From the sequence record OP312987.1: a stretch of 64,000 nucleotides of DNA. The stretch is one strand, 5' to 3'. A model generated the notes under the pieces. The model was not told the DNA's origin, ran no database searches, and saw only the letters and a list, made by a program, of their open reading frames with translations. Shown piece by piece: positions 22,891 to 61,719 of the stretch. The position numbers and the translations under genes were made by a program. Position 1 is the first letter of the stretch. Every line of letters starts with the position of its first letter. This DNA comes from Escherichia phage vB_EcoS_Uz-1.

Positions 22891-22902
22891 TAGGAAACTA
22901 TC

Positions 22903-41693: not shown

Positions 41694-43586
41694 TTATTTG
41701 CCAGCGTAGCGTTTAGCCACGGTGACCATTACGGTTGCATTCAATTCATCATCAGGTAATGGATTAGCCAGCTTCTTATTGAATGAGTGGACGGCTTGCT
41801 GTACTTGAGCAAAGTCCCAACCACTGTCAACCAATGCCAGTGCGTACTTAATCATTTGATTATTACGATTACCGGAGGCAATACGACTAGCGAACCAACG
41901 CTCCAGATTATCCAACGACTGTACTTCCTTCATCTGGTTCTGGAACTGCTCGTTCTTACTAGTACGAGGAATAAAGTCACGCACATCTAACAGATTTGCA
42001 TCAAGGTTGTAATGATAAGAACCAGTCTCACAGGACATCCACTTCTTGGCTCGTTGGTTAGCTGACTCATCTGTTTCGAATGGTAGCCAAGCCATAACGT
42101 TATTCATGAACTCTTTGTATTCCTCTGTATCGAGGTGTAACTCATAGTTCATTGGAATAATCAGACGGAAGCGGTTCTCTTCATCAGTATGACGCTTGGT
42201 GGTATAGGTCATGAACTTATATTCCTTCATCAGTTCATGGCACGTATGCAGTGGTACTCCACCATCACAGTCAATAACAATCATGTTAAATCCTGGGATA
42301 ACGTTCTCTTCAGAACGATGCCCATTCTTCATGTGATGGTTTACCCAGTGCATACCGGGAGCTTGGGTTAATACATGCAACTGGTCGAACGGTACGCGTT
42401 CACCAATGTAGTCATAAGCAAAGCTATCACTATATGCCACTATCATCTCATTGATGTCAGTCTCTTTAAGAGTTTCACCACGGAAGAACTCAATACCCTC
42501 ATTGAAGGTCTTCTTAATGATGATGTGCTGTTTGTAACCCCATGCAGTAGCAAGAGTCATCATTTCATTACGAGCTGCATTACCACTCTTATAGAATGGT
42601 AAAGACTCCAGCAAGTCAGCATGAGTTACTTCTTTACCTACGGAGGCAATGTACTTAGCCAGCTTCACATAGGCTTTTTCACGATTAAGGATTGTCTGGA
42701 ATGCTGCCCCAGATTCCTCTACAAGCAGAATTGCTTGTTTAAGGTGAGCCATCTCAATAAATGAACTCTGGTCAACAAATGCCAGTGCACCTGCCAGCTT
42801 AAGAGCTTTGAAGTAACGGTGGGAGATTTCAGCTTTACGAATCTCTTCGTGGTCAGCCATAGCTTCTGCTTGTTTCTCACAATCAATTTTGTAAGTAATC
42901 AGGGCAATACCTACAGCATCTTCCACAATCATCTTAAAGCCAAACAAGTTTGGGTCAGCCAGACTATGGAAGTGGTTAGCCCATTTACCAAGAGACTGTA
43001 CGTTATCCTGTTTAATCAGGTTACGGTAGATTTCTTCTGGGGTTAGTGTTGCATGTGCTCGTTTGTCTAAATGCCCGATGGCAAACAAACAACGACGTGC
43101 ATAACCTGTATCAAGGAAGTCATAGAACTGGTCCTCAGTCTGACCACCATCCAGCAGTTTACTCGGAGTACCAAACAACAGCAGGTTAGTTGGAGTCTTA
43201 CCGTCCAGTTCTTCACCACGAACGCTTTCAGCAGTATTCTTGGTCAGCTTCTGCTTAACCTTACCCTGGTCATATAGCTCCAGAAACAGAGTTAATACAT
43301 CAGAGTTAGCCAACAGATTTGAACCAATTTCATCAATTTGAAGATTGATTGAACCACATCCAGCCATTAACAGTTTATGACGTAGCTGTTTAACTGCTGG
43401 TGGAGTACCTGAGTCAAACGTAAACGGATATGCTCCGGCACGTTTATATTCTGCTTCAACTTTATCAAACTCTTCCTGCTGGTCAGTACCTTGACGTGCA
43501 GAGCGTTCGTTAGCAATCTTCCATAGACGGTCATTTGCAATGACGGGCATGGTGTCTTCCATAAAACGTTTACGGAAGCCAGTCAT
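41694..43586 (-). CDS. DNA primase-like protein (AEP-type motif in C-terminal half)
   Basis: 630 aa; Walker B-like LQIDEIGS in the N-terminal part, hhhDxD-like NMIVIDCDGG in the C-terminal part; start overlaps upstream ORF stop (ATGA). Confidence 0.5.
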   Translation of the reverse strand: MTGFRKRFMEDTMPVIANDRLWKIANERSARQGTDQQEEFDKVEAEYKRAGAYPFTFDSGTPPAVKQLRHKLLMAGCGSINLQIDEIGSNLLANSDVLTLFLELYDQGKVKQKLTKNTAESVRGEELDGKTPTNLLLFGTPSKLLDGGQTEDQFYDFLDTGYARRCLFAIGHLDKRAHATLTPEEIYRNLIKQDNVQSLGKWANHFHSLADPNLFGFKMIVEDAVGIALITYKIDCEKQAEAMADHEEIRKAEISHRYFKALKLAGALAFVDQSSFIEMAHLKQAILLVEESGAAFQTILNREKAYVKLAKYIASVGKEVTHADLLESLPFYKSGNAARNEMMTLATAWGYKQHIIIKKTFNEGIEFFRGETLKETDINEMIVAYSDSFAYDYIGERVPFDQLHVLTQAPGMHWVNHHMKNGHRSEENVIPGFNMIVIDCDGGVPLHTCHELMKEYKFMTYTTKRHTDEENRFRLIIPMNYELHLDTEEYKEFMNNVMAWLPFETDESANQRAKKWMSCETGSYHYNLDANLLDVRDFIPRTSKNEQFQNQMKEVQSLDNLERWFASRIASGNRNNQMIKYALALVDSGWDFAQVQQAVHSFNKKLANPLPDDELNATVMVTVAKRYAGK

Positions 43587-43903
43587 GAACCCGTCTTCGA
43601 TGATATTACTGAGTGACCTTTACCGAAACCAGATGTAGCCAACGCTATAGCGTAGATGTTTACCGGCAGGTCACCACGGTCTTTAGTTACGATGGTTGCA
43701 CCCATGCAGGATGCCATTTTAGCCAAGAAGTAGGCTACTTCGACACGGAAGAATCCCCGGTCATTGTTCTGGGTTTTATTGCAGAGCACATCTACGATTT
43801 CTTCAATCGCTGGATGGTGCACTACTCCGGTAAGGTCAATACTCATGATGGAAAATATCTCTCTCTTTGTTTGCAAATGGTCGCGACAGGGCAGTATAAA
43901 CAA
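43583..43903 (-). CDS. small hypothetical protein, possibly the N-terminal segment of the primase gene
   Basis: 106-aa ORF ending ATSGFGKGHS..., ATGA overlap with the primase ORF. Confidence 0.4.
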   Translation of the reverse strand: MFILPCRDHLQTKREIFSIMSIDLTGVVHHPAIEEIVDVLCNKTQNNDRGFFRVEVAYFLAKMASCMGATIVTKDRGDLPVNIYAIALATSGFGKGHSVISSKTGS

Positions 43904-44823
43904 CGCTTAACCTGCCCCTCCACGACCTTGATAGCACCCTTGCCACCTTTTTCAGCCATGAAGATACGGGCAGATGCCATATCGTCAAAGTTTTTGGTAC
44001 TTCTGGCTCCAGGCACATCTACCTTAGAAGCATCAGAGAAGTATTTGAATTGTGGCTCTGTTCGCCACAACTCCTCGTCAGTACATTCAGGAATTTCCTC
44101 TTCAGGAGCATCCCAGTACTTTTCGATGAGGTGAATCTTCTCTTCCACCCAACGTTCAGTCTTCTCGACAGATAGCAGCGGAATATCCTTATGCATAATA
44201 CGATTAGCAGGATAGTTCGGGTTGCTATTAGCCATGTGTTTCATGAAGTCAGTGAAGATGTAGTTAATACGGATTACATCCTCCGTAATGATGTCGTTAT
44301 GAATCCAACGGTACAAGCTGCCTTGCATCTTGTGTTCATCATCACGGGAACCGGCAACCCAGGAATAGGTTGAGGTAGACTTAAAGTCTTGCAACAGACC
44401 TTCCGTTACGATGTCGAACTTACCACCGATAGTCCAACCCTTAACTACCCTGGTTCCACGTTGTTCAATGTAGATTGGGATAAGGTCTGGGTTAGCATCA
44501 AAGTCTGCTTTGGTTGGGTTAATGACTACTGCATCAATGACTCGCTGAGGATAGCCTAGTTTCTTCAATGCAGTCTTATGCCCCAGCTTCCAGGCTTTCT
44601 CAATAGAATCATGCAAGCCAGTACCCATTGATGTGGAGACGAAATCCATAACATCAATGGATTGTTCACTGAGATCTACGCGATGCTTCATGACGATTTG
44701 CTTAATGGGTTTAAGCAATGTAGTAGCAGACAAGTACTTAGGATTGTCTACATAATCATACTCGTCATGTAATAGCCATACAGCTAGTGCAAGACTAACG
44801 TCGTGTTTGTTGGTAAGTTTCAT
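43843..44823 (-). CDS. PD-(D/E)XK nuclease, Cas4-like exonuclease with C-terminal Cys cluster
   Basis: GKFDIVTEG...QDFK nuclease-like motifs and C-terminal C-x2-C-x5-C (KRCLYCPVATICK); 326 aa. Confidence 0.5.
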   Translation of the reverse strand: MKLTNKHDVSLALAVWLLHDEYDYVDNPKYLSATTLLKPIKQIVMKHRVDLSEQSIDVMDFVSTSMGTGLHDSIEKAWKLGHKTALKKLGYPQRVIDAVVINPTKADFDANPDLIPIYIEQRGTRVVKGWTIGGKFDIVTEGLLQDFKSTSTYSWVAGSRDDEHKMQGSLYRWIHNDIITEDVIRINYIFTDFMKHMANSNPNYPANRIMHKDIPLLSVEKTERWVEEKIHLIEKYWDAPEEEIPECTDEELWRTEPQFKYFSDASKVDVPGARSTKNFDDMASARIFMAEKGGKGAIKVVEGQVKRCLYCPVATICKQRERYFPS

Positions 44824-45317
44824 AACAGTCCCAATTGCTTATTAGTTTTAGCAAACTCACCATAATGAGTTATAGCAGCTTCATCATAGAGAACAGCAGC
44901 TTCTCTTGGGTCATCTGTAAAACCTAATGTAATTGGTTTACTGTTAACCCAAATAGTTGCTCTGTATTTACCTAAATTCTTTGAAAAGGATACCCCCTTA
45001 AATCCAGATGTGTTTGTTTTAGATAAAACAGCACTCTGGTTATTCTGCTTGTGGGTCGCTTCTCTGAGGTTATCTATCCAGTTGTGATGGCGAATATTGT
45101 CCTTATGGTCAATCCTATCCGTAGGCCATACACCGTGCACATAGAACCATGCAAGGATATGCCCATAGTACAACACACTATCTACACGGAGTTGAACGTA
45201 ACCACTCTTCATTAGGTAACCAGATACCTTTCCGGTATTCCTACGAGTAAAAATCCCGGAAATAGGGTCATAACTAACAAGCTGTAAAAGCCTGTCATGG
45301 GCAATCCTCTGTTTCAT
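44820..45317 (-). CDS. HNH homing endonuclease with AP2-like DNA-binding domain
   Basis: HNH motif IDHKDNIRHHNWIDNLREATHKQN followed by GFKGVSF...YRATIW...LGFTDDPREAAVLYDEAA; 165 aa; flanked by a duplicated fragment of the downstream gene. Confidence 0.85.
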   Translation of the reverse strand: MKQRIAHDRLLQLVSYDPISGIFTRRNTGKVSGYLMKSGYVQLRVDSVLYYGHILAWFYVHGVWPTDRIDHKDNIRHHNWIDNLREATHKQNNQSAVLSKTNTSGFKGVSFSKNLGKYRATIWVNSKPITLGFTDDPREAAVLYDEAAITHYGEFAKTNKQLGLL

Positions 45318-45324
45318 AATTAGT

Positions 45325-45392
45325 TACTCGTCATGCAATAGCCATACAGCCAGGGCCAGTGATACATCATGGTTGTTGGTTATCTTCATTAG
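45325..45392 (-). repeat. duplicated 5' fragment of the exonuclease gene (direct repeat with 44757..44823)
   Basis: About 77% identical over 64 nt to the first 64 nt of the exonuclease gene, first 34 nt nearly identical; encodes MKITNNHDVSLALAVWLLHDE-stop versus MKLTNKHDVSLALAVWLLHDEYDY... Confidence 0.7.
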
Positions 45393-45865
45393 TAAGTAAT
45401 CCTGTATCTGTGAACCCAGTTCCACTTAATTTCACTTAGCTGATTGAAGTTATACGAGTAAATTTCATCTCGTTCATCTTTATAAACAATCTCAATGAAT
45501 GAAAATTCTTTAGTGAAGTGAGGTTTACCATTGTTTGTATGGTGCCAATAACTACCAACGGTATTTACATTCGTAGCAGGATCCGGAAATAACTCACTAG
45601 CTAACTTCTCTTTAGCGAGAATACGATTAGCGTAATGAACCAGCTTCTCAGCATCATACACCGAAGAGTTTCCTGGTTTACCATTACCCATACGGGCAGC
45701 AGCATTTCGCCATAGAGCCTTAAAGGCACAACCTTCATCGAAGGTCATGCCCAGTGCCTGGATAATATCCTCACACTCTGCTTGGTATGGCTCTTGCTCT
45801 TTCCGTTGGGGGTTCTTAACTGGTACTACATACCAGTTATTCAATCCACCGGAGAGCTTAGTCAT
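45389..45865 (-). CDS. hypothetical protein
   Basis: 158-aa ORF; its stop overlaps the ATG of the duplicated exonuclease fragment (TAATG). Confidence 0.55.
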   Translation of the reverse strand: MTKLSGGLNNWYVVPVKNPQRKEQEPYQAECEDIIQALGMTFDEGCAFKALWRNAAARMGNGKPGNSSVYDAEKLVHYANRILAKEKLASELFPDPATNVNTVGSYWHHTNNGKPHFTKEFSFIEIVYKDERDEIYSYNFNQLSEIKWNWVHRYRITY

Positions 45866-46170
45866 TATTCCCCCTTGGGAATCATGTTTGCCTGGAACTC
45901 TGGTTCAGACATCAGACCCAGGTTGTTAATGGACAGATAAACAATGTCTTTCAAATCAACCGAAGTGTCGAAACGCTGGTCCAGACTAATTTTAAGAGAG
46001 TGATTGGCACGGGCCAAATCTTTATAGGTCACATGAGGCTCGTCAGTGAGCAGCATTGTGTTCATAGTAAGCAGGGAGCCATCATCAGCTTTGGGAAGCT
46101 GGAAGATTACCTGTGCTGCTACCATCCAATGATATTTTCTGACAACGGTTTCTTTAGTACTTTTAGTCAT
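45865..46170 (-). CDS. hypothetical protein
   Basis: 101-aa ORF directly downstream of the DNA polymerase gene. Confidence 0.5.
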   Translation of the reverse strand: MTKSTKETVVRKYHWMVAAQVIFQLPKADDGSLLTMNTMLLTDEPHVTYKDLARANHSLKISLDQRFDTSVDLKDIVYLSINNLGLMSEPEFQANMIPKGE

Positions 46171-46661
46171 GCGAATGCCTTTTGAATTATTTGATGAACT
46201 TCATCTGGGGTAGCGTGATTTGGAATTTCAATCTCGTTAGCCCACGTTGGATAAAACAAGGATAGTTCCCCACCCAAACCAACTTCTGGATGAGCAATAT
46301 CAGGATGGTCTTGCCAGTTAACGGCTTCAACCAAGTGCTTGTTCGTATACTGTAAGGTATCCATGTTGTCACGGATCATGAAGTATTGGGCATCATGAAT
46401 GTGAATACAAGGACGGATATCTAACCTGAACTCACTGGTTCTGACTTTACGCATAAACTCTGAGCCAGCACGGTTATTAAGTAGACACCAGCTTTGACCT
46501 AATGCATTACCAGCAGTTCTGCCTTCAGCTTCTGCTTCATACGGAGTCTTACATGTCCCACGTAATACCTGAGCCAGTAAAGGAGTACGCACTCTTAAAC
46601 CAAATGCAGCAGTTACATAACCAGTCTTAGCAGCTTCGTCTAGCTTAGCCTGAACCCACAA
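46167..46661 (-). CDS. DNA polymerase family A, C-terminal fragment
   Basis: ...GYVTAAFGLRVRTP ... AEGRTAGNALGQS ... IHIHDAQYF resemble the Pol I C-terminal region and motif C; frame is open upstream to about 46739. Confidence 0.8.
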   Translation of the reverse strand: MWVQAKLDEAAKTGYVTAAFGLRVRTPLLAQVLRGTCKTPYEAEAEGRTAGNALGQSWCLLNNRAGSEFMRKVRTSEFRLDIRPCIHIHDAQYFMIRDNMDTLQYTNKHLVEAVNWQDHPDIAHPEVGLGGELSLFYPTWANEIEIPNHATPDEVHQIIQKAFA

Positions 46662-46669
46662 ATCACTAA

Positions 46670-47122
46670 CTACATAGAGATCGTGATAACGTTTCTCCGT
46701 AGTTTTAGCCTTCTCTTCGGAGAAGCCACAGTTTTCATTAAGCCCATGTAAGTACCACCATAGGTAAGCAGGAAGGTTGGAGCCTTCGAGTCACTACGTA
46801 ATGATTTGTACTTATGCTGAATGGAATTAATGGATTCTACTGTGTCTTCTATGTCTGGCATCTGCTCACCAAAATAAGCATATGCACGGAGACTGTGACC
46901 ATCATAGCCATCGGTATATACCTTAAGCTTCTGCGGGTCTTTAGTAGTTAAAGCTGAGATACGGTCTTCAAGGCTTGCAAAGTCCAGTCCACAAAATATC
47001 CAACCTGGTGGTGCTTCGAAGCATTTCTTAATCTTCTTGGCGTATTTGGAACCACTGGGGATGGTCTGTAGATTAGGCTCGGACGCTGAGAGACGTCCTG
47101 ATACTGTGCCTCCAAATTGAGG
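46670..47122 (-). CDS. DNA polymerase family A, middle fragment (motifs A and B)
   Basis: Hand translation of a second frame: PQFGGTVSGRLSASEPNLQTIPS ... CGLDFASLEDRISA ... KAPTFLLTYGGTYMGL; the ORF track shows only its last 63 codons (46670..46861). Confidence 0.7.
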   Translation of the reverse strand, partial: PQFGGTVSGRLSASEPNLQTIPSGSKYAKKIKKCFEAPPGWIFCGLDFASLEDRISALTTKDPQKLKVYTDGYDGHSLRAYAYFGEQMPDIEDTVESINSIQHKYKSLRSDSKAPTFLLTYGGTYMGLMKTVASPKRRLKLRRNVITISM

Positions 47123-48633
47123 TTACCGAACAGGTAGTGCCATCCATCTGGTCCAGGTTGTGCATTACGGAAAGCTGGGATGAATGAAGTGATGATCTTA
47201 TCCACCAGCTTATAGTCGATAAGTGCATTGAGCAGTTCCTTAACATCTTCACTCTGCGTATGTGTACGCAGTGCTTTAATAGTGTCACCGTCAGTAGCAG
47301 GTTGCTTGCTCTTAGTAAGACCAAGAACCGGTAAGCCGATGTAGTCAAATAACAATTTCTGTAATTGTGGACCAGAGTTAGGATTAAACTCTATGTCACA
47401 ATCAGCCAACGTTACCTGCTTCTTCTTAAGCTTGGCATTCTTATCGTCTACCCATTCCTGACGAAGCATCAGGGTGAAGTTCTTCATGAGCTTAGACTCA
47501 CGAATAGTTTTCAGAGCCTGGTTCCTGTCAGTTTCCATTTCTTCAGCTACTTGGTTAACGGTTTCCATATTCATGGGCATACCGGTTAACTGCATCTGAA
47601 TAATGTCTTCGCAGGCTGGTTTAAAGATGTTGTTATAAACATCTAGTTGGTTATCAGCTACCAGGGTATCCCAGTGTTTCTCGTAGGTGTACCAGGTACA
47701 CAAACCATCAATAAGGTTGTATCGTAACAGTTGCTCATTAGGAATGAGACGAATGTCTTTAATATCATCCTGAGCATAGTTACCAGCATACTCCTGAGCC
47801 TGCTCTTTTAGACTAAGGTGATTACCAGCACAACTGTTAGTAGCTAAATAAGTAATTAATTTAGTACAGTCCCAGTTACGCAGCATGATGTCCATGCCAT
47901 GCAGTAAGCCTCCAGTATCAATCAGGTTATCCATGAATAACTGATAAATAAGTATGTACACATCATAACTAATGTTGTGATACATCTGCCGTTGGGTGTA
48001 CTTAATGAAGAACTCACGGAGAAGATTTCGAACAATATCATTACGATTGATTCTCCCATAAGGTGCTTCAGTAGCTCCCCTAATTGGCTCGTAATCCACA
48101 TTAAAGGCTATGCCCTGTGTCTTACTCCAACAGAACGTAATTGTTCCTATACCTGCGTTATAGTGCTTTAAACCGAATGCCTCGATGTCTATAGCCAGAG
48201 GCTTATTCATCTCAAGCAACTGGTCTAGCCAGGCTTTAATCTTTTCTGGAGTATCTGGATAGGCTTCAAACTCAATGATTCCCTGACCTGGTTCAGCATA
48301 CTGCCCACGTATGTGGTTTAGTAATGCATCCATACCCTGAGCAATTTTGGCTCTCACTACAGGTGGGTCATAAAAGACCTGTCTGTAACTAGGCGTATAG
48401 ATAACTTTCTGTTTACCCCATACTGAATCACAAACATAGCCGAGATTAGCCTCTGCTTTAGCCTCTTTAGTCAGTATTTTGAAGTAATCAGAATCGGTGC
48501 AGATAATGTACTGGGTCTCTGCATCATCCAGTACTTGCTGCAATTCCTGCTTTATGAACTCCTTAATCTCTCTTGCTGGGGTCTTCTTCTTGCCCGGAGC
48601 AGAGTGAAGTTCAATAAAGATGAAGTCTTCCAT
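46948..48633 (-). CDS. DNA polymerase family A, N-terminal fragment with 3'-5' exonuclease motifs
   Basis: LAIDIEAFGL (Exo I-like) and HNISYDVY (Exo II-like) in a 561-aa ORF; authentic sequence ends near 47100; a strong SD plus ATG at 48670 joins this frame if the T3 run at 48658-48660 is one base longer. Confidence 0.8.
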   Translation of the reverse strand: MEDFIFIELHSAPGKKKTPAREIKEFIKQELQQVLDDAETQYIICTDSDYFKILTKEAKAEANLGYVCDSVWGKQKVIYTPSYRQVFYDPPVVRAKIAQGMDALLNHIRGQYAEPGQGIIEFEAYPDTPEKIKAWLDQLLEMNKPLAIDIEAFGLKHYNAGIGTITFCWSKTQGIAFNVDYEPIRGATEAPYGRINRNDIVRNLLREFFIKYTQRQMYHNISYDVYILIYQLFMDNLIDTGGLLHGMDIMLRNWDCTKLITYLATNSCAGNHLSLKEQAQEYAGNYAQDDIKDIRLIPNEQLLRYNLIDGLCTWYTYEKHWDTLVADNQLDVYNNIFKPACEDIIQMQLTGMPMNMETVNQVAEEMETDRNQALKTIRESKLMKNFTLMLRQEWVDDKNAKLKKKQVTLADCDIEFNPNSGPQLQKLLFDYIGLPVLGLTKSKQPATDGDTIKALRTHTQSEDVKELLNALIDYKLVDKIITSFIPAFRNAQPGPDGWHYLFGNLNLEAQYQDVSQRPSLIYRPSPVVPNTPRRLRNASKHHQVGYFVDWTLQALKTVSQL

Positions 48634-48752
48634 GCTTAGGTCATAAGGCAGCAGGTAGGTTTAATCATCTCCTCCCTTCGGATTTGATGACCGAGGATAG
48701 CAATAGGATACTTACCAGTATCCTGAGAGGTGATGTAACGCATAGCTTTACC

Positions 48753-49283
48753 TTAAAAGATCAGATGGGAAGCTGCATAATACTCAATAGAGGGCAGAAT
48801 CTTCTCATACTGCTTGATTGCCATAGCATCACCAGCAAGTGTCCAGGCTGCTTCACGAGTACGTGGCAGACCTTTGTACTGACCAGTCTGATCTTGTGCT
48901 ACCAGACATTCAGGCAGGGCATCTCGTACATCCTGATAAGACATACAACCACGAACCAGGCGATATACAGTCTGGTTCACAAGGTGTACTTCCATAATCA
49001 GACGACTGGAGGCTTTCAGATACTTGTCCATTGCAGGCCATAGTTCTGGATTAAGCGTTAATCGTTCACCATAGGTTGGGGGTCTGGTAGCATTAGAACG
49101 CTGATAGAACTCCCCTTGGTGAAGGAATCCAGCCGATACATCTACACCATTGATGCGATCATTCTTATCAATGATACCGTTTAACACACCATCAAGACGA
49201 ACCAGTTCTGCTAAGAACAGGTGTTTGACTATCTCGCTGCTATTGGCAACTTGACCAATAGTCGCTGAACCAATCTGAGGCAT
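48753..49283 (-). CDS. hypothetical protein
   Basis: 176-aa ORF between helicase and polymerase genes. Confidence 0.55.
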   Translation of the reverse strand: MPQIGSATIGQVANSSEIVKHLFLAELVRLDGVLNGIIDKNDRINGVDVSAGFLHQGEFYQRSNATRPPTYGERLTLNPELWPAMDKYLKASSRLIMEVHLVNQTVYRLVRGCMSYQDVRDALPECLVAQDQTGQYKGLPRTREAAWTLAGDAMAIKQYEKILPSIEYYAASHLIF

Positions 49284-51480: not shown

Positions 51481-53529
51481 TTACTTAACGTGCTTTGACA
51501 GCTTAGTAGCCAATTTGCTCTCTTCTTCAGTCAGACCCATTGCAGCTGAAGACTTCTTAGCTGCACGCTTATAGTCTTGTAGGGCATGACCTTTCTGATA
51601 GTCAGAGATAGGACTATCTTCAGGATGTACGCAGATTATCATGGCATGTTTACCAGTAATGGCAGGCTTATATTTAGTGGGTAGAACGGTCTTAGCTTGC
51701 TTCACTGGTTTTGGTTTGCCGATGGGTTTAGCTGTGTAAGTTGTACGTACATCAGCAATCTTAGCCACTACATCGGAACCAACTCCTAAAGCAGCCCATG
51801 GCTTACGGGCCTTGCCTCGCATTTCCACAAGCAAATCAGCAGCAGCTAATTTATCTTCTGGGGTTGTTGCATTGAGGAACTCTTTGACCAGTTCCTGGAT
51901 TTGTTCTTTCACAGTAGGAGCCTTCTTAATAACGGGTTTAAGGTCAGTAGCCTTCACTGGTTCAGAAGCTACAGTTTCATTCAGTGACTCTTCCATATTC
52001 AGTGCTTCTTTATTAGCAACTGTACGGAATTGTTCTACAGAACCAGATGTGAGATTAGTATATTTGAGGTTAGTACCACGATGTCCACCAACCATAACAA
52101 GTGTGGTAGGTGAACTATGGTTCCCAACGATGGCATCATTAAGCAACTTCTTACCTACTTCTGTCTTAGACAGATAGATACCGTTGTTAACGTTGCAACG
52201 TTCCTCTTCCGGCAGTTCAGCAATAATGTGATATGCAGATACACGCATCTTATTAGTGCTGTACTGAGGAACAGCAAATACATCTTCTGGTGCTACTTTA
52301 CCAAGGATAGTTACGTTACCACCGAAGCTACGAATGTAGCTCATGGATGCTACATGCAGACCATTAGAACAGTCCTGGCGACGGTCAGGGTCTACCAGGT
52401 CTTCGCGTACCTGCACTTTACATCCTACCCATTGACGAATGTTGCCTGAGTGACAATCAACGAATACACGTTTACCATTCTCTAGACTTCTATACTTCAG
52501 ACGTTTCAGGAACAGGATTGAACCATCATCAGCAATAGGTAGCTCAGCAGTTTCCATGAACTTCATCAGGTCTTCAACTGAGTGTAGACGGTCTTTAATT
52601 ACTGGAGCCAGACGCTCAAGGAACTTAGTAAAGCCCTTGTAGTCTTTCAGTTGGGCAGACTGACGCAAGTGACGTTGCAGGTTCTCAACTCCAGGGATAA
52701 CCCCATCGTTGGTAACAGCAACAACCACTTCATCTTCCTTCACATCAGTGTGGAAGTTAGCGTCATCAGTACTAATAGCACCCAATGCAGCCAGTTTCTC
52801 AGAAGCAGCAGCCAGCTTATCCTGATTCGTAACTTTAACCTCTTCTACATAAGGCAGTGGAGTTTCATCGCGACTGGTAAATACAATGTGTACTCCTTTG
52901 ATATGTTTGGCTTGTTTAGCAAACTCACTCATTTCATCATCGGATACTGCACGAATTGCAATAGGCCATTCTTGCTTAAGAATGCTGTCAGTATGCTTAT
53001 AACTCCAACACAGTACATCATTAATAAAACGAACCAGTGCAGGATGGTTATGGTCCTTGTCCCAACCAGTAACCCACATCAGATTGTCACGTTTATCGTA
53101 ACAACCGTCTGCTACTGTTACTTCTGGTTCATTAGCCTGGACAGCCAGGAAGGTATCCATAGCTCTAGACACCAGCGTCTTAGTGGGATTTCCCAGCTTA
53201 ATATCTGAGACGATTCGGGCTGGTTGAGTACTTGTACCATCTTCGAAGAACTCTTTGAGTTTAGCCTTAGCTACCTTGAAGAAACGGACGAATCCGTTAG
53301 TGTTCTTCTCTGCTTCCAGATATTCAGTACGCAGGTTTACTTCTGGTGCAATGTTTACTTCTATCTGGTCTTTGGTAGTTCCCAGACCTTTGGTTTGTGC
53401 TTCAGATACAATACGAGCAACCCGTGGGTCGCTCTGAGGATATACAATCGTGGAGCCATCAGGCTTCCACAGTGTAAGGTTACGACTGTCAACTGCCAGT
53501 GCGATGATAGAAATCAGTTCGATTTTCAT
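51481..53529 (-). CDS. large hypothetical protein, rIIB-like candidate by position
   Basis: 682-aa ORF downstream of the rIIA-like gene; no motif verified. Confidence 0.4.
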   Translation of the reverse strand: MKIELISIIALAVDSRNLTLWKPDGSTIVYPQSDPRVARIVSEAQTKGLGTTKDQIEVNIAPEVNLRTEYLEAEKNTNGFVRFFKVAKAKLKEFFEDGTSTQPARIVSDIKLGNPTKTLVSRAMDTFLAVQANEPEVTVADGCYDKRDNLMWVTGWDKDHNHPALVRFINDVLCWSYKHTDSILKQEWPIAIRAVSDDEMSEFAKQAKHIKGVHIVFTSRDETPLPYVEEVKVTNQDKLAAASEKLAALGAISTDDANFHTDVKEDEVVVAVTNDGVIPGVENLQRHLRQSAQLKDYKGFTKFLERLAPVIKDRLHSVEDLMKFMETAELPIADDGSILFLKRLKYRSLENGKRVFVDCHSGNIRQWVGCKVQVREDLVDPDRRQDCSNGLHVASMSYIRSFGGNVTILGKVAPEDVFAVPQYSTNKMRVSAYHIIAELPEEERCNVNNGIYLSKTEVGKKLLNDAIVGNHSSPTTLVMVGGHRGTNLKYTNLTSGSVEQFRTVANKEALNMEESLNETVASEPVKATDLKPVIKKAPTVKEQIQELVKEFLNATTPEDKLAAADLLVEMRGKARKPWAALGVGSDVVAKIADVRTTYTAKPIGKPKPVKQAKTVLPTKYKPAITGKHAMIICVHPEDSPISDYQKGHALQDYKRAAKKSSAAMGLTEEESKLATKLSKHVK

Positions 53530-53533
53530 CAGA

Positions 53534-53779
53534 TTAGTTACCTTTCAGTTTATTTAGACGATTACGGTAGAGGGACTTAAACCCAGGAATATCCTCTGGA
53601 TTCTTCTTAAGGTGTTTGACCAAACTACCTAAGTCCAGCGTCTGTAGGATGTCATTTTTATTCCAGCTATAACTGAATAATTCTTTGTAATCATTAAGTA
53701 TTTTAAAGTACTTATGATTACGCGGATTAGTCATTATTGCATATGGCTCTAAGTCATCCACTGACTTAATACAACCCAT
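53534..53779 (-). CDS. hypothetical protein
   Basis: 81-aa ORF between the rIIA-like and 682-aa genes. Confidence 0.45.
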   Translation of the reverse strand: MGCIKSVDDLEPYAIMTNPRNHKYFKILNDYKELFSYSWNKNDILQTLDLGSLVKHLKKNPEDIPGFKSLYRNRLNKLKGN

Positions 53780-53880
53780 TTCAACAAGTTTTTCTTTGTT
53801 GTCGTGTGGTCGATTCCGTAGAAAGTCATATGCCCATTCATATTCTGGTTTAAAAATCAGATTCTGTAATGGTTTGAAGG

Positions 53881-55263
53881 TTAGACCAGTATGTCTAGGA
53901 TTTCCCAGTATTCCCTGTCATCCAGTCCTACGTATTCCAGAATACCAATACGGTGTTCAGTAACATATTTCTTGAAGCCTTTACTGGTAATAACTGGCAT
54001 CAGCTCCATAAAGCGAACATCATCAATGTGGATAGCACCTCTCCGTTTGGCCTTGTTAGCTTCGATTTGATTACGGCAGACAACAGTCTCTGCTCTCATC
54101 TCATCAGATAACTCATACCATTTCCACATGGTTCCAATTCGAGCAGTTACTGGGCTACCTGAACCAACCTGATTGGCTAGTACGTAGTACTTAGGTTGCT
54201 CTACTTCAACGAAACCAGACTTATCATGGCGACTTGGGTCTGCAAATTCCTTCTGAATATAAGGCTTTGGTTCCCAATCCCCATTTTTATTCCGTATTTG
54301 GGTAGCACCAAGAACTGCATTCAATGAAATCAGAGAATTAGTTTTACCTCCTGCCTTGGTTTTATTGGCAGCGATTGTCTTAGACCGTTTCTCAGCAGCT
54401 ATCTTAGCTTTCTCTCTACGGAAGTTAGTTGGTTTGTCCCACTCATTATATTGAGTAAGGTCGATTACCCGATAACCCATAGCAGTGAACTTAGCCACAG
54501 CTTCTTCTGCTGCACCCTTCTTAGGTCCAACGACGTGAACAAAAGCTGTACGCTCCAGGTCACCTCGATCGTACTCAGGGAAGTACGAGAAAGAGTCTGC
54601 ACAGTCAGACAAACGTCGGGTAACTACAACGTTTTTGGTAGTGAATATGCCAATACTTTGGTGGGAGTTATTGTATATCCTAAAGTAGTCAGTAAGTTTA
54701 CCTTTTACCAAGTCAACACGGTTACCTTGATTCATTATGTAACCAGACCACTTAATACCAGAGGTTTTCAAAGCAGCCAGCTGAGGTAAGTGCAGATGGC
54801 GATATACTAATTCCGAGAATGGGGAGTATGTACTTTCTTCACGAGTATCCTTAAGAGCACGCATAGCCTTACCATACAGTTTCTTAAGACCTGCGTATTC
54901 AGGACGAGCTAATAATGCCTTATTGGATAAATTACGCCAGTGCTTGATGTAATGCTTACGTTGCTTAGCCCACAAACTAGAGGACATATAGCGTTGAACA
55001 GTTCTGTCTGTAACAGCACCCAGGAATGATGGATACTCCCAGAAGCGAGTAGAGGATTTAGAAGCATATTCTTCAACCTGCTTAATGGCTTCAGGAATCT
55101 TAGCCTTAATCTCTTTCTCCATACGGTCTACTAAATCTACACATAGAGTAGTAATACCATCGTCGGTTAACTTCTGGTTAGACAGCGTTTCTCGACTAGG
55201 AGCAATAGCTAAAGTGTCTGGTGCAGCCTGAACTACTAGATTAGAAGCACCAATAATATTCAT
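53881..55263 (-). CDS. rIIA: rIIA-like protein, C-terminal fragment
   Basis: 460-aa ORF starting 17 nt after the GHKL-ATPase ORF in another frame with no SD; its frame is open ~20 codons upstream into the other ORF's end. Confidence 0.55.
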   Translation of the reverse strand: MNIIGASNLVVQAAPDTLAIAPSRETLSNQKLTDDGITTLCVDLVDRMEKEIKAKIPEAIKQVEEYASKSSTRFWEYPSFLGAVTDRTVQRYMSSSLWAKQRKHYIKHWRNLSNKALLARPEYAGLKKLYGKAMRALKDTREESTYSPFSELVYRHLHLPQLAALKTSGIKWSGYIMNQGNRVDLVKGKLTDYFRIYNNSHQSIGIFTTKNVVVTRRLSDCADSFSYFPEYDRGDLERTAFVHVVGPKKGAAEEAVAKFTAMGYRVIDLTQYNEWDKPTNFRREKAKIAAEKRSKTIAANKTKAGGKTNSLISLNAVLGATQIRNKNGDWEPKPYIQKEFADPSRHDKSGFVEVEQPKYYVLANQVGSGSPVTARIGTMWKWYELSDEMRAETVVCRNQIEANKAKRRGAIHIDDVRFMELMPVITSKGFKKYVTEHRIGILEYVGLDDREYWEILDILV

Positions 55264-55280
55264 GAAGTTGAGGATAAGGC

Positions 55281-56099
55281 CTACAGCTTCTTCACTAGCT
55301 GGGCTGGATACAATTGGTACATTACATTACCGTAGCGAACGTATATGTTACTGCTACCCATATAGCCTTGATACCATCTATCAGACATATCATATGAACC
55401 AGGTTCAAATGGCATGCCTAGTGTATCCAGTAGAGTGTAGTCGCCTTGTTGAATACTATTACTCTCGTCTGTTCTAATGAGTTTGGGAGTACTTAGCTCA
55501 GCTTTAATTTCACCGTTAAACACAATTGATTTGATGTAATGAATAAAGGTATTTAAATCATGTTTGCCTAACTGGAATTTAACTTCCAGACCAGATTCCT
55601 CAGTAGGAATACCAGTAATAATAGGAACAATACCAGGCTTACCATCATTCTCAATTGCAGCCTTAGCTACGTTATATACAGACATCTTCCCTTGGTTCCA
55701 TGATGTAACCTGGAAGCTATCTGTATAAGCGAATGGGGATTTACATCCCAGACCAAAGCCACCAGTAACACTACTGTTGGACTTCTTGGTAGATGCACCA
55801 TAGACACCATAAATGGAGCCAATGAGTTCATCTTGGATACCGTTACCGAAGTCACGGAAGGTAATAAAGTTGTCAGTATCAATGGTAATACGGATAGGAG
55901 TATCAGTCTTACCTGCTTCAATATGGGCATCCCAACTGTTACAGATAGTTTCACGGACTACTGCCAGAGTAGGGTTGTTATACAAGGAAGTACTTAATAC
56001 ATGAAAGAATGCCGGGTCATCAGAGATGCCAAAGGCGATTGCTTCTTTGCCACCCAGTGTCGCTGAAGTGGCTGATTGATTGGTATCTGCAACTAACAT
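55281..56099 (-). CDS. rIIA: rIIA-like protein, N-terminal GHKL (Bergerat-fold) ATPase fragment
   Basis: ExxxNxxDA-type VRETICNSWDAH, DxGxG-type FRDFGNGI and Gly-rich VTGGFGLGCKSPF motifs, as in GyrB/Hsp90/MutL-type ATPase domains found at rIIA N-termini. Confidence 0.65.
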   Translation of the reverse strand: MLVADTNQSATSATLGGKEAIAFGISDDPAFFHVLSTSLYNNPTLAVVRETICNSWDAHIEAGKTDTPIRITIDTDNFITFRDFGNGIQDELIGSIYGVYGASTKKSNSSVTGGFGLGCKSPFAYTDSFQVTSWNQGKMSVYNVAKAAIENDGKPGIVPIITGIPTEESGLEVKFQLGKHDLNTFIHYIKSIVFNGEIKAELSTPKLIRTDESNSIQQGDYTLLDTLGMPFEPGSYDMSDRWYQGYMGSSNIYVRYGNVMYQLYPAQLVKKL

Positions 56100-56126
56100 T
56101 TATTTACTCTCCAGTTTAAATGTTGC

Positions 56127-56375
56127 TTACATTAGAACTTGTTTACACTTATCAAAAATAGCTTTACGAAGTTCAGCTTCTTCCCGTGGTTCATCATTAG
56201 GATGGTGACCTACAGGACTATTTTGAAAAGCATTCATTAGGAATAAGACCTGATACTCGGTTAAACCATTAATCTGAATGCTATACGTTTTCTCTGAGGC
56301 GATATTTACATTAGCCATTGCGTTTACCTGCCATTGCTTGTAATACAAACACAGCCATATCTGATGCCATGTCAT
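56127..56375 (-). CDS. small hypothetical protein
   Basis: ORF track 82 aa; probable start at internal Met (MANVNIAS...) near 56318 because of overlap with the upstream ORF. Confidence 0.4.
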   Translation of the reverse strand: MTWHQIWLCLYYKQWQVNAMANVNIASEKTYSIQINGLTEYQVLFLMNAFQNSPVGHHPNDEPREEAELRKAIFDKCKQVLM

Positions 56376-56685
56376 CTGTTATATCGTTGACCGTTCCATA
56401 TGGTAGTGGGCCGTTCTCTTCCCAGTTATCTAACGTGTTTTGTACTTCAGCTAAACCAGCCTGAATCATTTCCTTGCTTGGTTCCAGCCATAACTTACGT
56501 TCCTCTGCTAGTGCAGCGATGCATATGCATAGAGAGGCAATGTTAGCTGGACAAGCAGCAATATCACCAGTTACTGCAATCTCACTGAGTGGGACAGCCT
56601 TACCGGTTTTACTATGAATTACTTCAGGGTTAATCATGAATTTGCTCCAGGTTATGGGCAGGAATAGGGAAGCATGGATAGTCAC
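56311..56685 (-). CDS. hypothetical protein
   Basis: 124-aa ORF. Confidence 0.45.
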   Translation of the reverse strand: MTIHASLFLPITWSKFMINPEVIHSKTGKAVPLSEIAVTGDIAACPANIASLCICIAALAEERKLWLEPSKEMIQAGLAEVQNTLDNWEENGPLPYGTVNDITDDMASDMAVFVLQAMAGKRNG

Positions 56686-56842
56686 CGGTAGGGTCCAGTG
56701 TTACTGACACATGCAGTGTATTTGTCATTTGGGTTAGCATCTGAGCAGCATTGAAATCATCCTGGATACAGGCATATACAATGTCGCCCTTCTCACCCTC
56801 ACACATTACGGGTGTGTCTTTGATACGGTATTTAGCAGGCAT
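56630..56842 (-). CDS. small hypothetical protein
   Basis: 70-aa ORF immediately downstream of a minus-strand terminator. Confidence 0.4.
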   Translation of the reverse strand: MPAKYRIKDTPVMCEGEKGDIVYACIQDDFNAAQMLTQMTNTLHVSVTLDPTGDYPCFPIPAHNLEQIHD

Positions 56843-56867
56843 ATGCCCTCCTGAAAGAGTTAATTGA

Positions 56868-56897
56868 AACCAAAAAAGACCTCCCGGAGGAGGTCTT
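56868..56897 (-). terminator. intrinsic terminator
   Basis: AGACCTCC-CGGA-GGAGGTCT hairpin followed on the minus strand by TTTTTTGG. Confidence 0.7.
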
Positions 56898-56901
56898 AGG
56901 T

Positions 56902-57117
56902 TTACTTACGATTTTGTTCTACAAATCGTATCATTTGTTTTTTCACTTCTTCTTGCTCACGAATTGCTTCGTAGTCACGAGCAAAGTAGTAAACACACCA
57001 TAAACCAATCTCGCTTACAAAGAACAGAATACTAGCTCGAATGAACTGCATATCTGTTTCTACGACAAAGGCAACTTTGTATGCGTAGGTCAGTGTTAGT
57101 AGGGTACTAATTAGCAT
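56902..57117 (-). CDS. small membrane protein
   Basis: 71 aa with two hydrophobic segments. Confidence 0.5.
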   Translation of the reverse strand: MLISTLLTLTYAYKVAFVVETDMQFIRASILFFVSEIGLWCVYYFARDYEAIREQEEVKKQMIRFVEQNRK

Positions 57118-57136
57118 TGCGTATAGAGCTAGTTTT

Positions 57137-58081
57137 TCATTCTGTAATTGTTTCTCCGGGGATTAGTTTACGGAATTGGATGAAATCCAGTAAGTTGCCA
57201 GAATACAGCTTACCTTCACGGTCCATAGATGTAACACCCTGTTCCCATGTTAATGGGTTCTGGTTGTTCACATACTTATCACCAACAGTCATAGGAGTTG
57301 CCTGGTGTTCGGTAGGGGATGCATGAATAGGTTGGTTTTCAACTAACTTAGCAAACAATCCTAAGTCCTCTTCAATAGTAGATGGACGGCCTTCGAAATT
57401 GTTGTAAGAAGCACGAGCACAACGAGCAGCACTTACTTTAAGAAGTAAGCCATACACTTCTTCACGACTTGGCTCATCACGAGTAATTCGCTGATGTTTG
57501 CAGTAATTATAAGCCCCGACACGATCAATATGAGCAATATACGGTAAATGCCATTCCCCTTGTGGGAGTGCTCTCGTAGTGCTTTCATTGTGTGCCTTAC
57601 GCATTGCTTGAGCCAGTTCACGAATCTCTGGTTGAGCGTCCTCATGGTCACGCAATCCATAGAAGTTAGTCCAGCTAGTTGAAGTTACCACTACACGGAT
57701 ATGTGTGAATGGTTCCAGAATACGGTTAACAATCTGCTTATGTACTTGACCACGACGAAGCATTTCTGCATAGGTAGCAGCACTGGACGCAGCCTGATTC
57801 CAGATAAAGATTGCATCTACGTTGGTCTTCGGACTGAGTTCCTCAAATGCCTGCATACCCTTCTGGTTCTTACCCCAGTGACTTGGCATCACTGGTTCAT
57901 TACGAACCTGTTCGATGAACTTAGAAGTAGGGATAGCACGACTACTTGAAGCATTTCGGTTGAATACACGGTGAGTCATAAACTCACTGTGGATGAATCG
58001 GGGGTAAACCAATTCAAAGGTAGTAATACGAGTTCCTGTTTCTGGGTGAACGGAATCTGCAATGACAGTTGCCTTAATCAT
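57137..58081 (-). CDS. thyX: ThyX-like (flavin-dependent thymidylate synthase family) protein, tentative
   Basis: Segment TTFELVYPRFIHSEFMTHRVFNRNASSSR resembles the ThyX core around the RHR...S.R signature as recalled, with T in place of the first R; 314 aa. ThyA motifs absent. Confidence 0.45.
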   Translation of the reverse strand: MIKATVIADSVHPETGTRITTFELVYPRFIHSEFMTHRVFNRNASSSRAIPTSKFIEQVRNEPVMPSHWGKNQKGMQAFEELSPKTNVDAIFIWNQAASSAATYAEMLRRGQVHKQIVNRILEPFTHIRVVVTSTSWTNFYGLRDHEDAQPEIRELAQAMRKAHNESTTRALPQGEWHLPYIAHIDRVGAYNYCKHQRITRDEPSREEVYGLLLKVSAARCARASYNNFEGRPSTIEEDLGLFAKLVENQPIHASPTEHQATPMTVGDKYVNNQNPLTWEQGVTSMDREGKLYSGNLLDFIQFRKLIPGETITE

Positions 58082-58524
58082 TAGAATGACCTTAGATAGT
58101 TGGTGATACCACTTCTCGTCTCTGTAATCCTCTTAACCTGAACATATACCAGCTTAAACTCACTACGAGGTAGTTCTTGTAATACTGCTATACCTTCGGT
58201 AAGGGCCACAGAACACGCTACAGCGGTTTCTTTTTTAAAGGAGTACAAGTCTTCATACATGAGGGCTTCATACTCCCTACGGAGCATACAGAGAGCATCT
58301 CTTGCTTTATCACTTACTTCTTGTGAACCAGCAGACATAGCTAAGCTGTATATGATAAAGACTTGTTCAAAAACAAAGTCCAGTAATCTATCAGGATTGT
58401 TAGTCCCCATAAATAATTTTGTTGTGTAGGAACGAGCTTTACGGTTGAGTTCATACTCATCCTCTATGCCTTTATTGTAAAGAACAGGATTTCGTTCCCT
58501 TTTCCGTAGGAATGGGATACGCAT
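58081..58524 (-). CDS. hypothetical protein
   Basis: 147-aa ORF. Confidence 0.5.
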   Translation of the reverse strand: MRIPFLRKRERNPVLYNKGIEDEYELNRKARSYTTKLFMGTNNPDRLLDFVFEQVFIIYSLAMSAGSQEVSDKARDALCMLRREYEALMYEDLYSFKKETAVACSVALTEGIAVLQELPRSEFKLVYVQVKRITETRSGITNYLRSF

Positions 58525-58904
58525 TAGTATTTACTGCCTCTTCTATACCAAGGATAGTGATGGGTAGTACTTTTACCTTTGAACACATCCTTAGTACGCG
58601 GATTCTTTTGTATTTGAGCCAGGTAAAGAGGTATTTCGTCATAACACGGGTTAAGCCAAAACAAATCTATGATTCGGTCTACCTTAGTTTTCAGATTAGG
58701 TTCTAGGGGAATGTATGAATTAAAAGGTCTGCTAGTAGTCCATCCTCTCTGAACAAGAACCTGCATTGTTGTATAAAGATCTAATTCATTTCCATTCTCT
58801 ACTTGATCATGAATAGTTTTACCTAAAGTAAGCATTGCAGTTTGTTCCAGCTTACTTAAGTCCAATCCTTGCAGGATAGACTTACCATTTTGTCTACTTG
58901 ACAT
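58524..58904 (-). CDS. hypothetical protein
   Basis: 126-aa ORF. Confidence 0.5.
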   Translation of the reverse strand: MSSRQNGKSILQGLDLSKLEQTAMLTLGKTIHDQVENGNELDLYTTMQVLVQRGWTTSRPFNSYIPLEPNLKTKVDRIIDLFWLNPCYDEIPLYLAQIQKNPRTKDVFKGKSTTHHYPWYRRGSKY

Positions 58905-58912
58905 AAGAGTAC

Positions 58913-58945
58913 CTGTAAATAAAAAAGCCCACTGGTTAGGTGGGC
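58913..58945 (-). terminator. intrinsic terminator
   Basis: AGCCCAC...GTGGGCT hairpin followed on the minus strand by TTTTTTATTTAC. Confidence 0.7.
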
Positions 58946-59059
58946 TTGGGTTAGGAGATGGATAAGCAATGAGCTGGAAGTAACTTCCGCAAGCACCACT
59001 ATGTAATGATGCTTAGATTAGTTACTCTGCTTTGCTACTACCGTTTGAGACTACAACAG

Positions 59060-59299
59060 TTACGATTGTAGTCTGAGACTGCCTTTATTAGACAGTGCCC
59101 AAATTAGTGCTACTACCCAGAAGACTAAAGACCAGCCTAATACGATATTGAGCACACCAATGCCCCACTTGGAGGCATGGCCTCGTGCAAAAGCAATGAT
59201 AGTAGGGATGAGGTATACAGCTATTATGAATAAGAAAACAAGGATTGCTGCTAAAGATTCCATGATGGTTCCTATGTGGGGTTGAGTTAGTTTCTTCAC
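59060..59299 (-). CDS. superinfection immunity (Imm-like) membrane protein
   Basis: 79-aa two-TM protein with YLIPTIIAFARGHASKWGIGVLNIVLGWSLVFWVVALIWAL, matching the recalled signature of the T4 Imm-like family. Confidence 0.65.
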   Translation of the reverse strand: MKKLTQPHIGTIMESLAAILVFLFIIAVYLIPTIIAFARGHASKWGIGVLNIVLGWSLVFWVVALIWALSNKGSLRLQS

Positions 59300-59336
59300 A
59301 AATAGCCCAACTATGCTGGGCTATTTAGGCAGCTAC

Positions 59337-59546
59337 TTACTCAGCATCTTTGCTTGCAGAAGCAAGAGCTTTCTTCAGGTAATTACGTACTGAACGATAG
59401 GTTTCTTTAGTATCCATAGCATTATCATTTACGAAAGTGATACGTGCACAATCAGACAGCGGAATCTGCTCCACTGCAATTACATTTGCAGCATTAATGG
59501 TTACACGTACATCTGAGGTTGCATGAGTTACTTGAAATACTGACAT
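59337..59546 (-). CDS. small hypothetical protein
   Basis: 69-aa ORF. Confidence 0.45.
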   Translation of the reverse strand: MSVFQVTHATSDVRVTINAANVIAVEQIPLSDCARITFVNDNAMDTKETYRSVRNYLKKALASASKDAE

Positions 59547-59555
59547 GTTGTTTCC

Positions 59556-60580: not shown

Positions 60581-60634
60581 GGAACCACTGGTTTAAGAAA
60601 TTGGGTAATAACCTCTTCCATACGACCAGCACCC

Positions 60635-61712: not shown

Positions 61713-61719
61713 GTTGTGA

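Follow-up and report, generated by a model that had tools for sequence, protein, structure and literature searches.

Is the DNA polymerase gene of Escherichia phage vB_EcoS_Uz-1 (sequence record OP312987.1) really broken into several reading frames, or is the sequence as given at fault? DNA polymerase belongs to the 17 core proteins of the Schitoviridae (PMC7650795). In the window, i.e. the whole stretch of 64,000 nucleotides analysed here, the initial annotation had described a family A DNA polymerase split over three frames and had ascribed the breaks to indel errors rather than to biology. The split itself was borne out. The exonuclease motifs lie, as claimed, in ORF 46948-48633 (561 aa), while GRLSASEPNLQTIP, LDFASLEDRI and KAPTFLLTYGG were found in a second frame extending from about 47125 to a stop at 46670, and the C-terminal GYVTAAFGLRVRTP...IHIHDAQ in a third, which is closed by the TGA at 46169-46167. 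Four segments can be delimited (Table 1); as the first and the last share the same phase, this agrees with the earlier count of three frames.

Table 1. Segments and break sites of the polymerase gene (positions are those of the window).
Feature	Position	Strand	Basis
Complete DNA polymerase gene (N4 gp39 homologue)	46167..48743	-	CDS boundaries of relatives; stop-free repaired translation; Pfam; PHROG
Segment 1, codons 1-27	48663..48743	-	N-terminus conservation; direct reading; as given, runs into TAA 48638-48636
Junction 1, AAA run (plus strand TTT)	48660..48662	-	AAAA in all relatives (alignment)
Segment 2, N-terminal region, Exo I-III and start of polymerase domain	47117..48659	-	Inside ORF 46948-48633
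Junction 2, AATTTGG	47112..47118	-	Relatives AAT-CTT/CTG/TTA-GG (Asn-Leu-Gly)
Segment 3, GRLSASEPNLQ, motif A (LDFASLEDR) and motif B (KAPTFLLTYGG)	46736..47111	-	Direct reading; mismatch phases
Junction 3, AAAA run	46732..46735	-	Relatives AAAAA; AAGAA in more distant ones
Segment 4, C-terminal third and motif C (IHIHDAQ)	46167..46731	-	Ends at TGA 46169-46167

Addition of one base at each break site yielded an uninterrupted polymerase frame of 859 aa with no stop codon, the three restored bases lengthening the gene from 2577 to 2580 nt. The minus-strand interval 48743-46167 is an N4 gp39-type family A DNA polymerase gene. The Pfam profile DNA_pol_A (PF00476) matched aa 432-786 of the repaired protein with 132.4 bits (cut-off 34.3; E = 2.6e-38), compared with 24.6 bits, under the same cut-off, for the unrepaired ORF 46948-48633 and no match at all for the unrepaired ORF 46167-46661. 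A second profile, phrog_17 ('DNA polymerase'), covered aa 6-858 in one stretch (E = 1.9e-173), and the Pfam, PHROG and PDB 7r0k alignments all crossed the junctions unbroken. Membership in family A is given by the DNA_pol_A match above the gathering score together with motifs A, B and C. Full-length homology and the gene neighbourhood identify the protein as an N4 gp39-type polymerase of the Schitoviridae/Gamaleyavirus, the gene order (gp37 helicase, gp38, polymerase, gp40, gp41, gp42, gp43 primase) being that annotated for phages Bp4, VTCCBPA_322 and E20.

The palm and fingers (aa 435-730) could also be aligned with bacterial Pol I large fragments (Klenow, Taq/Klentaq, Bst) and with PDB 7r0k, at E values of 1e-21 to 1e-29. 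Both groups have RLS..PNLQ, DxSxxE, K..F..YG and HD in common, but identity is low, and the phage enzyme has an N-terminal region of its own (~180 aa) and a putative exonuclease domain too divergent for Pfam. No Pfam exonuclease domain was found in the repaired polymerase even at E values up to 10, and its alignment with the exonuclease region of 7r0k stayed under significance. Exo I (DIE; AIDIEAF), Exo II (HNxxYD; YHNISYD) and Exo III (YNLxD; YNLIDG) are nevertheless kept in all relatives, down to ~40% identity. To the same depth, relatives keep the catalytic motifs A (LDFASLEDR), B (KAPTFLLTYGG) and C (IHIHDAQ), as well as the residues at the junctions, NLGGTVSGRLS and LMKNCGFSEE.

The initial annotation had placed the start codon at 48670, and this did not hold: the ATG that follows the GGGAGGAG stretch, at 48668-48666, encodes an internal methionine (codon 26). 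The true start is the ATG at 48743-48741, as indicated by the annotation of relatives and by the N-terminus MRY..YP(I/V)AIL, which is conserved in distant relatives of 57-75% identity. The gene is therefore about 75 nt longer than first described. Nine nucleotides separate this ATG from the stop codon of the upstream gene, and at the other end the polymerase stop overlaps the ATG of the next gene. The accompanying remark that this ATG joins the first frame only if a T3 run is one base longer agrees with the alignment, in which relatives carry A4 in place of the minus-strand A3 at 48662-48660.

When the gene was aligned with intact relatives, three 1-nt gaps coincided exactly with the three frame switches. 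Every relative examined reads through all three sites in one frame, and polymerase frames are intact in relatives down to ~40% protein identity. The closest comparisons are the intact Gamaleyavirus polymerases (VTCCBPA_322 XFC51941.1, E20 WAQ79261.1, G7C, IME11, EC1-UPM), orthologues of N4 gp39 (YP_950517.1) that occupy the same neighbourhood; these genes have 2580 nt in a single frame, whereas the window is one base short at three positions, and the repaired protein differs from theirs at 10-39 of 859 residues. The check proposed in the initial annotation, alignment of the repaired protein with N4-like polymerases, gave 98.8% identity to the VTCCBPA_322 enzyme (10 of 859 residues differ). The two genes are 94.5% identical in nucleotide sequence, so that ~140 nt changes stand against 10 aa changes. 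The highest DNA match to the polymerase region had 94.7% identity, and identity to 51 Gamaleyavirus records ranged from 90 to 95%. Among the listed GenBank records, 40 align with the gene without a break, and in every one of them its span is exactly 2580 nt; a span of 2577 nt occurs, among the listed matches, in Bp4 (KJ135004.2) only.

The view that the junctions fall at homopolymer runs stood for site 1 (A3 against A4) and site 3 (A4 against A5) but not for site 2, which has no clean homopolymer. There, the absent base is the C of the CTT/CTG leucine codon or one G of the G-run, within the conserved FGNLNLGGTVSGRLS motif; Bp4 reads TTGGGGGAACG at this position. The lack of an obvious homopolymer in relatives at site 2 counts against an artefact. 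In the repaired protein, the stretches that span junctions read NLNLGGTVSGR and GLMKNCGFSEEK. An apparent fourth disturbance at 46701/46707, suggested by a compensating pair of BLAST gaps, was dismissed as substitutions only (K-T-T versus K-L-T).

Phage Bp4 (KJ135004.2 / NC_024142.2) carries the same three single-base deletions, with identical ORF coordinates (46948..48633 and 46167..46661), and annotates orf46 (561 aa, 46948-48633) and orf45 (164 aa, 46167-46661) as 'DNA polymerase; similar to part of N4 gp39'. Across all loci fetched, the deletions were carried by the window and Bp4 only. Positions 1-64000 of the window align with positions 1-64000 of Bp4 without gaps. Between them are 3822 substitutions (6.0%), about 200 of these in the polymerase gene, and zero indels, and the longest identical blocks reach 5.6 kb; by comparison, dozens of indels separate the window from VTCCBPA_322. 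Being free of indels against Bp4 over 64 kb, the window lies on Bp4's scaffold and is thus no independent confirmation of the deletions. The 6% divergence was counted against an artefact as well, because on its face it means that the same deletions occur in two distinct sequences.

The window is not the Bp4 record itself. In the capsid region it carries 18 of 178 private alleles of Bp4 and groups with natural metagenome contigs, and the capsid and portal proteins differ from those of Bp4 by 9 and 17 aa, respectively. As both proteins retained their '.1' accessions in version 2 of the Bp4 record, the possibility that the window is the earlier version, KJ135004.1, was rejected too. The substitutions and the few Bp4 private alleles indicate that the bases of a different lineage are set on the Bp4 scaffold. 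A randomly mutated copy of Bp4 was considered and rejected, as the non-Bp4 alleles nearly all occur in natural relatives and Bp4 private alleles are few. The capsid protein of the window is common, the contigs that carry it being 96.2-96.5% identical in DNA; for the 561-aa ORF and the helicase, no recorded copy was found in any assembly.

If the deletions were real mutations, the genome would represent a defective or pseudogenised variant, for instance a subpopulation of mutants within the stock, or a genome rescued through co-infection with a helper. The frameshifts are present in the window as given and in one GenBank record (Bp4). Moreover, motif A cannot be translated by itself, since the frame of Segment 3 has no ATG, GTG or TTG before 46861, and the gene would accordingly be dead as written. 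The substitutions between the two deletion-bearing sequences, however, still track the intact frame. Mismatches between the window and Bp4 at first, second and third codon positions of the repaired frame numbered 19/4/108 in Segment 2, 3/1/30 in Segment 3 and 3/1/30 in Segment 4, the third-position share thus amounting to 108/131, 30/34 and 30/34. This excess indicates that the intact protein remained under selection while the two lineages diverged: purifying selection acts on the repaired frame, which is intact, and the deletions cannot predate the divergence of the window and Bp4. Three identical deletions arising independently in two lineages are implausible. The deleted alleles of sites 1, 2 and 3 had no match in IMG/VR, nor had that of site 3 in the metagenome collection, as opposed to 12 and 11 matches, respectively, for the intact site-3 allele.

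Neither are the losses confined to the polymerase. At least six further conserved genes that are split in Bp4 (gp53, gp51, primase, rIIA, gp25 and gp24) are broken in the window too, and of 20 isolated 1-nt indels, 17 leave the window one base shorter, mostly at runs of three or more bases. Suspect positions outside the polymerase lie at about 20882, 23559, 23650, 23754, 24011 and 43606, and the breaks in rIIA, gp25 and gp24 fall within 53534-62771. Real deletions in this many conserved genes would be incompatible with a plaque-forming isolate; Bp4 is a propagated lytic isolate (PMC7650795). We consider real mutation very unlikely.

Programmed recoding, in which a -1 ribosomal shift (or RNA polymerase slippage) at each of the three sites restores a full-length polymerase, could draw on the fact that all three breaks need a shift in the same direction, with one base re-read. 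Six nucleotides downstream of site 3 there is a 6-bp hairpin (CUUCUC-CGAA-GAGAAG, 46725-46710), and the sequences downstream of sites 2 and 3 fold with z scores of -1.9 and -2.5 (relative to mononucleotide shuffles only). This modest RNA structure was counted against an artefact. However, the hairpin coincides with the codons for F-S-E-E-K, is also present in intact relatives and is lost in relatives from Klebsiella phages, and site 1 is without structure (z = -0.27). An X XXY YYZ heptamer is absent, the in-frame codons being AUU AAA CCU, AAU UUG GAG and AUG AAA ACU. Transcriptional slippage involves runs of about 7-9 nt or more, and the runs found here (A3, T3/G2 and A4) are far too short.

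The window would need a -1 shift per site, as in the programmed frameshifting of E. coli dnaX (A AAA AAG) and of the phage tail chaperones G/GT, but differs from these in having no slippery heptamer, no conserved shift and three shifts in one gene, which placed in series would multiply inefficiency in an essential enzyme. No relative uses a shift, all of them encoding the polymerase in one frame. In sum, neither a heptamer, nor conservation in relatives, nor a shift-specific downstream structure was found at any of the three sites, and we regard programmed recoding as extremely improbable. We give equally little credence to a broader form of this idea, namely that the deletions are real and that a Bp4-type lineage relies on efficient, non-canonical -1 recoding at short A, T or G runs to produce its polymerase along with several other essential proteins whose genes are fragmented. 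Such recoding, if it were true, would amount to a genome-wide habit in an N4-like phage; likewise, real deletions would imply serial recoding without precedent in an essential phage gene, and nothing that we found supports it.

The two-part annotation of orf46 and orf45 in Bp4 might also be taken to reflect a naturally split polymerase, whose exonuclease-bearing and C-terminal parts are made as separate polypeptides that assemble. Some relatives are truly interrupted by HNH-endonuclease insertions (PhAPEC5, PhAPEC7, Moonfish, ST4, U1G, SP5M, PGN829.1, phi G17), and their polymerases are likewise annotated as two 'DNA polymerase' CDSs. These genes contain a real mobile element, an insertion of 695-843 nt after codon 559 or near codon 610, which extends them to 3275-3423 nt, whereas the window holds no inserted element and lacks single bases only. 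The breaks in the window lie inside conserved motifs and not between domains. For want of a start codon before 46861, the middle segment of 126 codons, with the catalytic Asp of motif A and with motif B, would stay untranslated, and orf45 starts at a TTG that has no independent support. A natural split is, in our judgement, extremely unlikely. Four IMG/VR contigs (L017-L020) with an open stretch of 576 aa, at first candidates for frameshifted polymerases, have an insertion after codon 559, the same place as in PhAPEC5.

On these comparisons, the three missing bases very probably reflect a sequencing or assembly artefact in a normally uninterrupted polymerase gene of a Gamaleyavirus, an N4-like podophage of E. 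coli. The deletions are unique to the Bp4-type scaffold, the losses across the genome run in one direction, and selection acts on the unbroken frame; every comparative test supported the earlier view of indel errors rather than biology. Under-called bases in the assembly of Bp4 may be the origin of the deletions, which would have reached the window through its construction on, or derivation from, the coordinate scaffold of Bp4; a reference-guided consensus that takes over SNPs only is one possible route. The real phage would then make a single polymerase of 859 aa with a putative 3'-5' exonuclease.

The value of this result lies mostly in quality control. With the substitutions of another lineage on the indel scaffold of Bp4, an error in a reference genome that is copied into a derived sequence can pass for independent confirmation. 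The polymerase gene is best read as encoding one protein of 859 aa, and the fragmented CDSs of the Bp4 type (polymerase, primase, gp51, gp53, rIIA, gp24 and gp25) should be regarded as neither split genes, nor pseudogenes, nor cases of recoding.

The DNA polymerase gene of this N4-like phage lies on the minus strand of the window, flanked by homologues of gp38 and gp40. Read directly from the window's ORFs and frames, the gene is written in several pieces. The initial annotation had described it as split over three frames with characteristic motifs, and both the frames and the motifs were found in the sequence. When aligned against relatives whose gene is intact (VTCCBPA_322, PP989839; E20, OP745616; IMG/VR and metagenome contigs), the window showed exactly three single-base gaps in the gene (sites 1 to 3). 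At site 2 the lost base is ambiguous: it may be a Leu codon's C or a G from the G-run; Escherichia phage Bp4 has five Gs there. The junctions had been placed at homopolymer runs, which holds for sites 1 and 3 but not for site 2, where there is no clear homopolymer. An extra gap pair reported by BLAST at 46701/46707 was rejected, as alignment with relatives showed substitutions only. BLAST against VTCCBPA_322 also gave closely spaced compensating gap pairs in the virion RNA polymerase gene (25886-25894 and 29773-29781); taken as gaps, these would shift two to three codons locally, and they may be mis-aligned substitutions like 46701/46707, or paired errors.

Coordinates of the polymerase gene, its junctions and further features
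Feature	Position (nt)	Strand	Description
gp38 homologue	48753-49283		polymerase gene neighbour
gp40 homologue	45865-46170		polymerase gene neighbour
First piece	ATG 48743 to TAA 48638-48636	minus	first frame
ORF	46948-48633	minus	second frame; 561 aa
Stop-free stretch	about 47125 to 46670	minus	third frame; GRLSASEPNLQTIP, LDFASLEDRI, KAPTFLLTYGG
C-terminal stretch	to TGA 46169-46167	minus	first frame again; GYVTAAFGLRVRTP, IHIHDAQ
Site 1	48662-48660	minus	window A3, relatives A4
Site 2	47118-47112	minus	window AATTTGG, relatives AAT-CTT/CTG/TTA-GG
Site 3	46735-46732	minus	window A4, relatives A5
Hairpin	46710-46725	minus	perfect, 6 bp, 4-nt loop (CTTCTC CGAA GAGAAG), just downstream of junction 3
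HNH homing endonuclease ORF	44820-45317	minus	between gp42 and gp41 homologues; 100% identical to Bp4; absent at this position in VTCCBPA_322 and E20
Blocks identical to Bp4	780-1079, 35698-36318, 37465-38250, 53267-55679, 56116-57142, 61200-61722, 62503-64000
Block identical to Bp4	5902-11543		tail fibre and spike
Block identical to Bp4	44774-45610		HNH endonuclease
Fragmented-gene regions	19780-24862, 41694-43726, 53534-56099, 60062-61234, 61720-62771
Intergenic runs	2126, 2677, 2694, 38544, 38657, 40854		window/VTCCBPA_322: C3/C4, G3/G4, A3/A4, G5/G6, T5/T6, T4/T5
Interrupted polymerase loci of relatives	L013, about 2130-2754; L014, 1977-2678; L017-L020 (IMG/VR contigs), from 1977

Addition of one base at each site yielded a stop-free ORF of 2580 nt (859 aa). 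The repaired protein matched Pfam DNA_pol_A (aa 432-786, E 2.6e-38), while the unrepaired pieces fell under the threshold or had no match; phrog_17 'DNA polymerase' covered aa 6-858 in a single stretch (E 1.9e-173), and Pol I structures (7r0k, Taq, Klenow) aligned unbroken through junctions 2 and 3. In the alignment to N4-like polymerases that had been proposed as a check, the repaired protein differed from that of VTCCBPA_322 at 10 of 859 residues (DNA 94.5% identical), and the junction residues (FGNLNLGGTVSGRLS, GLMKNCGFSEE and EEMIKTYL) were kept, as were Exo I-III and motifs A-C, in relatives down to approximately 40% identity. Production of the polymerase as separate functional pieces is disfavored by these breaks, which interrupt conserved motifs, and by the segment with motifs A and B, which has no start codon before 46861. 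The start at 48670 given in the initial annotation was not upheld: the ATG following the GGGAGGAG stretch lies at 48668-48666 and is codon 26. Because the start annotated in relatives is equivalent to window position 48743, and the first 25 residues (MRY...YP(I/V)AIL) are kept in relatives of 57-75% identity, we assign the gene to 48743-46167. The Bp4 annotation begins the N-terminal part at ATG 48633, leaving the first 37 conserved codons (48743-48634) in no annotated CDS.

Among the GenBank matches listed, all 40 phage records with one unbroken match span exactly 2580 nt, the other full-coverage records have the gene lengthened by 695-843-nt insertions with an HNH endonuclease, and a span of 2577 nt occurs in Bp4 only (KJ135004.2 / NC_024142.2). 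Bp4 carries the same three deletions and annotates two 'DNA polymerase' parts with exactly the window's coordinates. In exact-pattern scans the deleted alleles of all three sites were absent from IMG/VR, and that of site 3 also from the metagenome collection; the intact site-3 allele gave 12 and 11 matches, respectively. Among all loci fetched, the window and Bp4 were the only deletion carriers. Interruption by an intron or homing endonuclease is real in several relatives (in GenBank: PhAPEC5, PhAPEC7, Moonfish, ST4, U1G, SP5M, PGN829.1, phi G17 and PD205), with insertions at two positions, one following codon 559, within SEPNLQ, and the other close to codon 610, and with an HNH endonuclease that some records label intron-associated; it does not account for the window, whose polymerase gene has neither insertion.

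Substitutions between the window and Bp4 were then tallied per codon position in the repaired frame. Counts at positions 1, 2 and 3 were 19, 4 and 108 for segment 2 (48659-47117), and 3, 1 and 30 for both segment 3 (47111-46736) and segment 4 (46731-46167). Where ORF 46948-48633 continues downstream of site 2, substitutions track the real frame of the polymerase instead of the annotated frame. The unbroken protein has thus been under purifying selection for as long as the two lineages have been diverging, which rules out old, inherited frameshifts. A true pseudogene is at odds with this signal and with viability. Recoding, by which a shift at the three sites would restore the full-length polymerase, is likewise poorly compatible with the data: a slippery heptamer is missing from all three sites, transcriptional slippage would need longer runs, the sole notable downstream hairpin is the FSEEK coding sequence, also present in intact relatives, and no relative uses a shift.

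Over positions 1-64000, the window and Bp4 (KJ135004.2) align with zero gaps and 3822 substitutions (6.0%), of which 2575 are transitions and 1247 are transversions; nine blocks at least 250 nt long are 100% identical, while natural relatives of similar divergence are dozens of indels apart. The window's non-Bp4 alleles are natural and occur in other Gamaleyaviruses; in the capsid region, it has 18 of 178 private Bp4 alleles. The simplest reading of these alignments is that another lineage's bases were placed on the Bp4 coordinate scaffold by a substitution-only process, such as a reference-guided consensus. Whichever way the window arose, deletions common to both records travel with this scaffold, so neither record is confirmation of the other.

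Further conserved genes are fragmented identically in both records: gp53, primase, gp25 and gp24 into two pieces each, gp51 and rIIA into three. Losses of 1 base or 2 nt relative to VTCCBPA_322 were seen at approximately 20882, 23559, 23650, 23754, 24011 and 43606. Compared with VTCCBPA_322, the window is the shorter sequence in 17 of 20 clean isolated 1-base indels in the first 50 kb, most of the 17 lying in runs at least three bases long. At six intergenic positions, homopolymers are also one base shorter in the window than in VTCCBPA_322, in the same direction as in genes. With deletions limited to the window/Bp4 scaffold, a repaired frame under selection and base losses genome-wide, the comparisons support the initial view that the 'split' reflects indel errors and no biological feature. 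The family shares 17 core proteins, DNA polymerase among them, and Bp4 has been characterised as a lytic isolate (PMC7650795); a phage would be unable to multiply with this many of its essential genes disrupted. The gene is an ordinary, already known polymerase of the N4 gp39 type.
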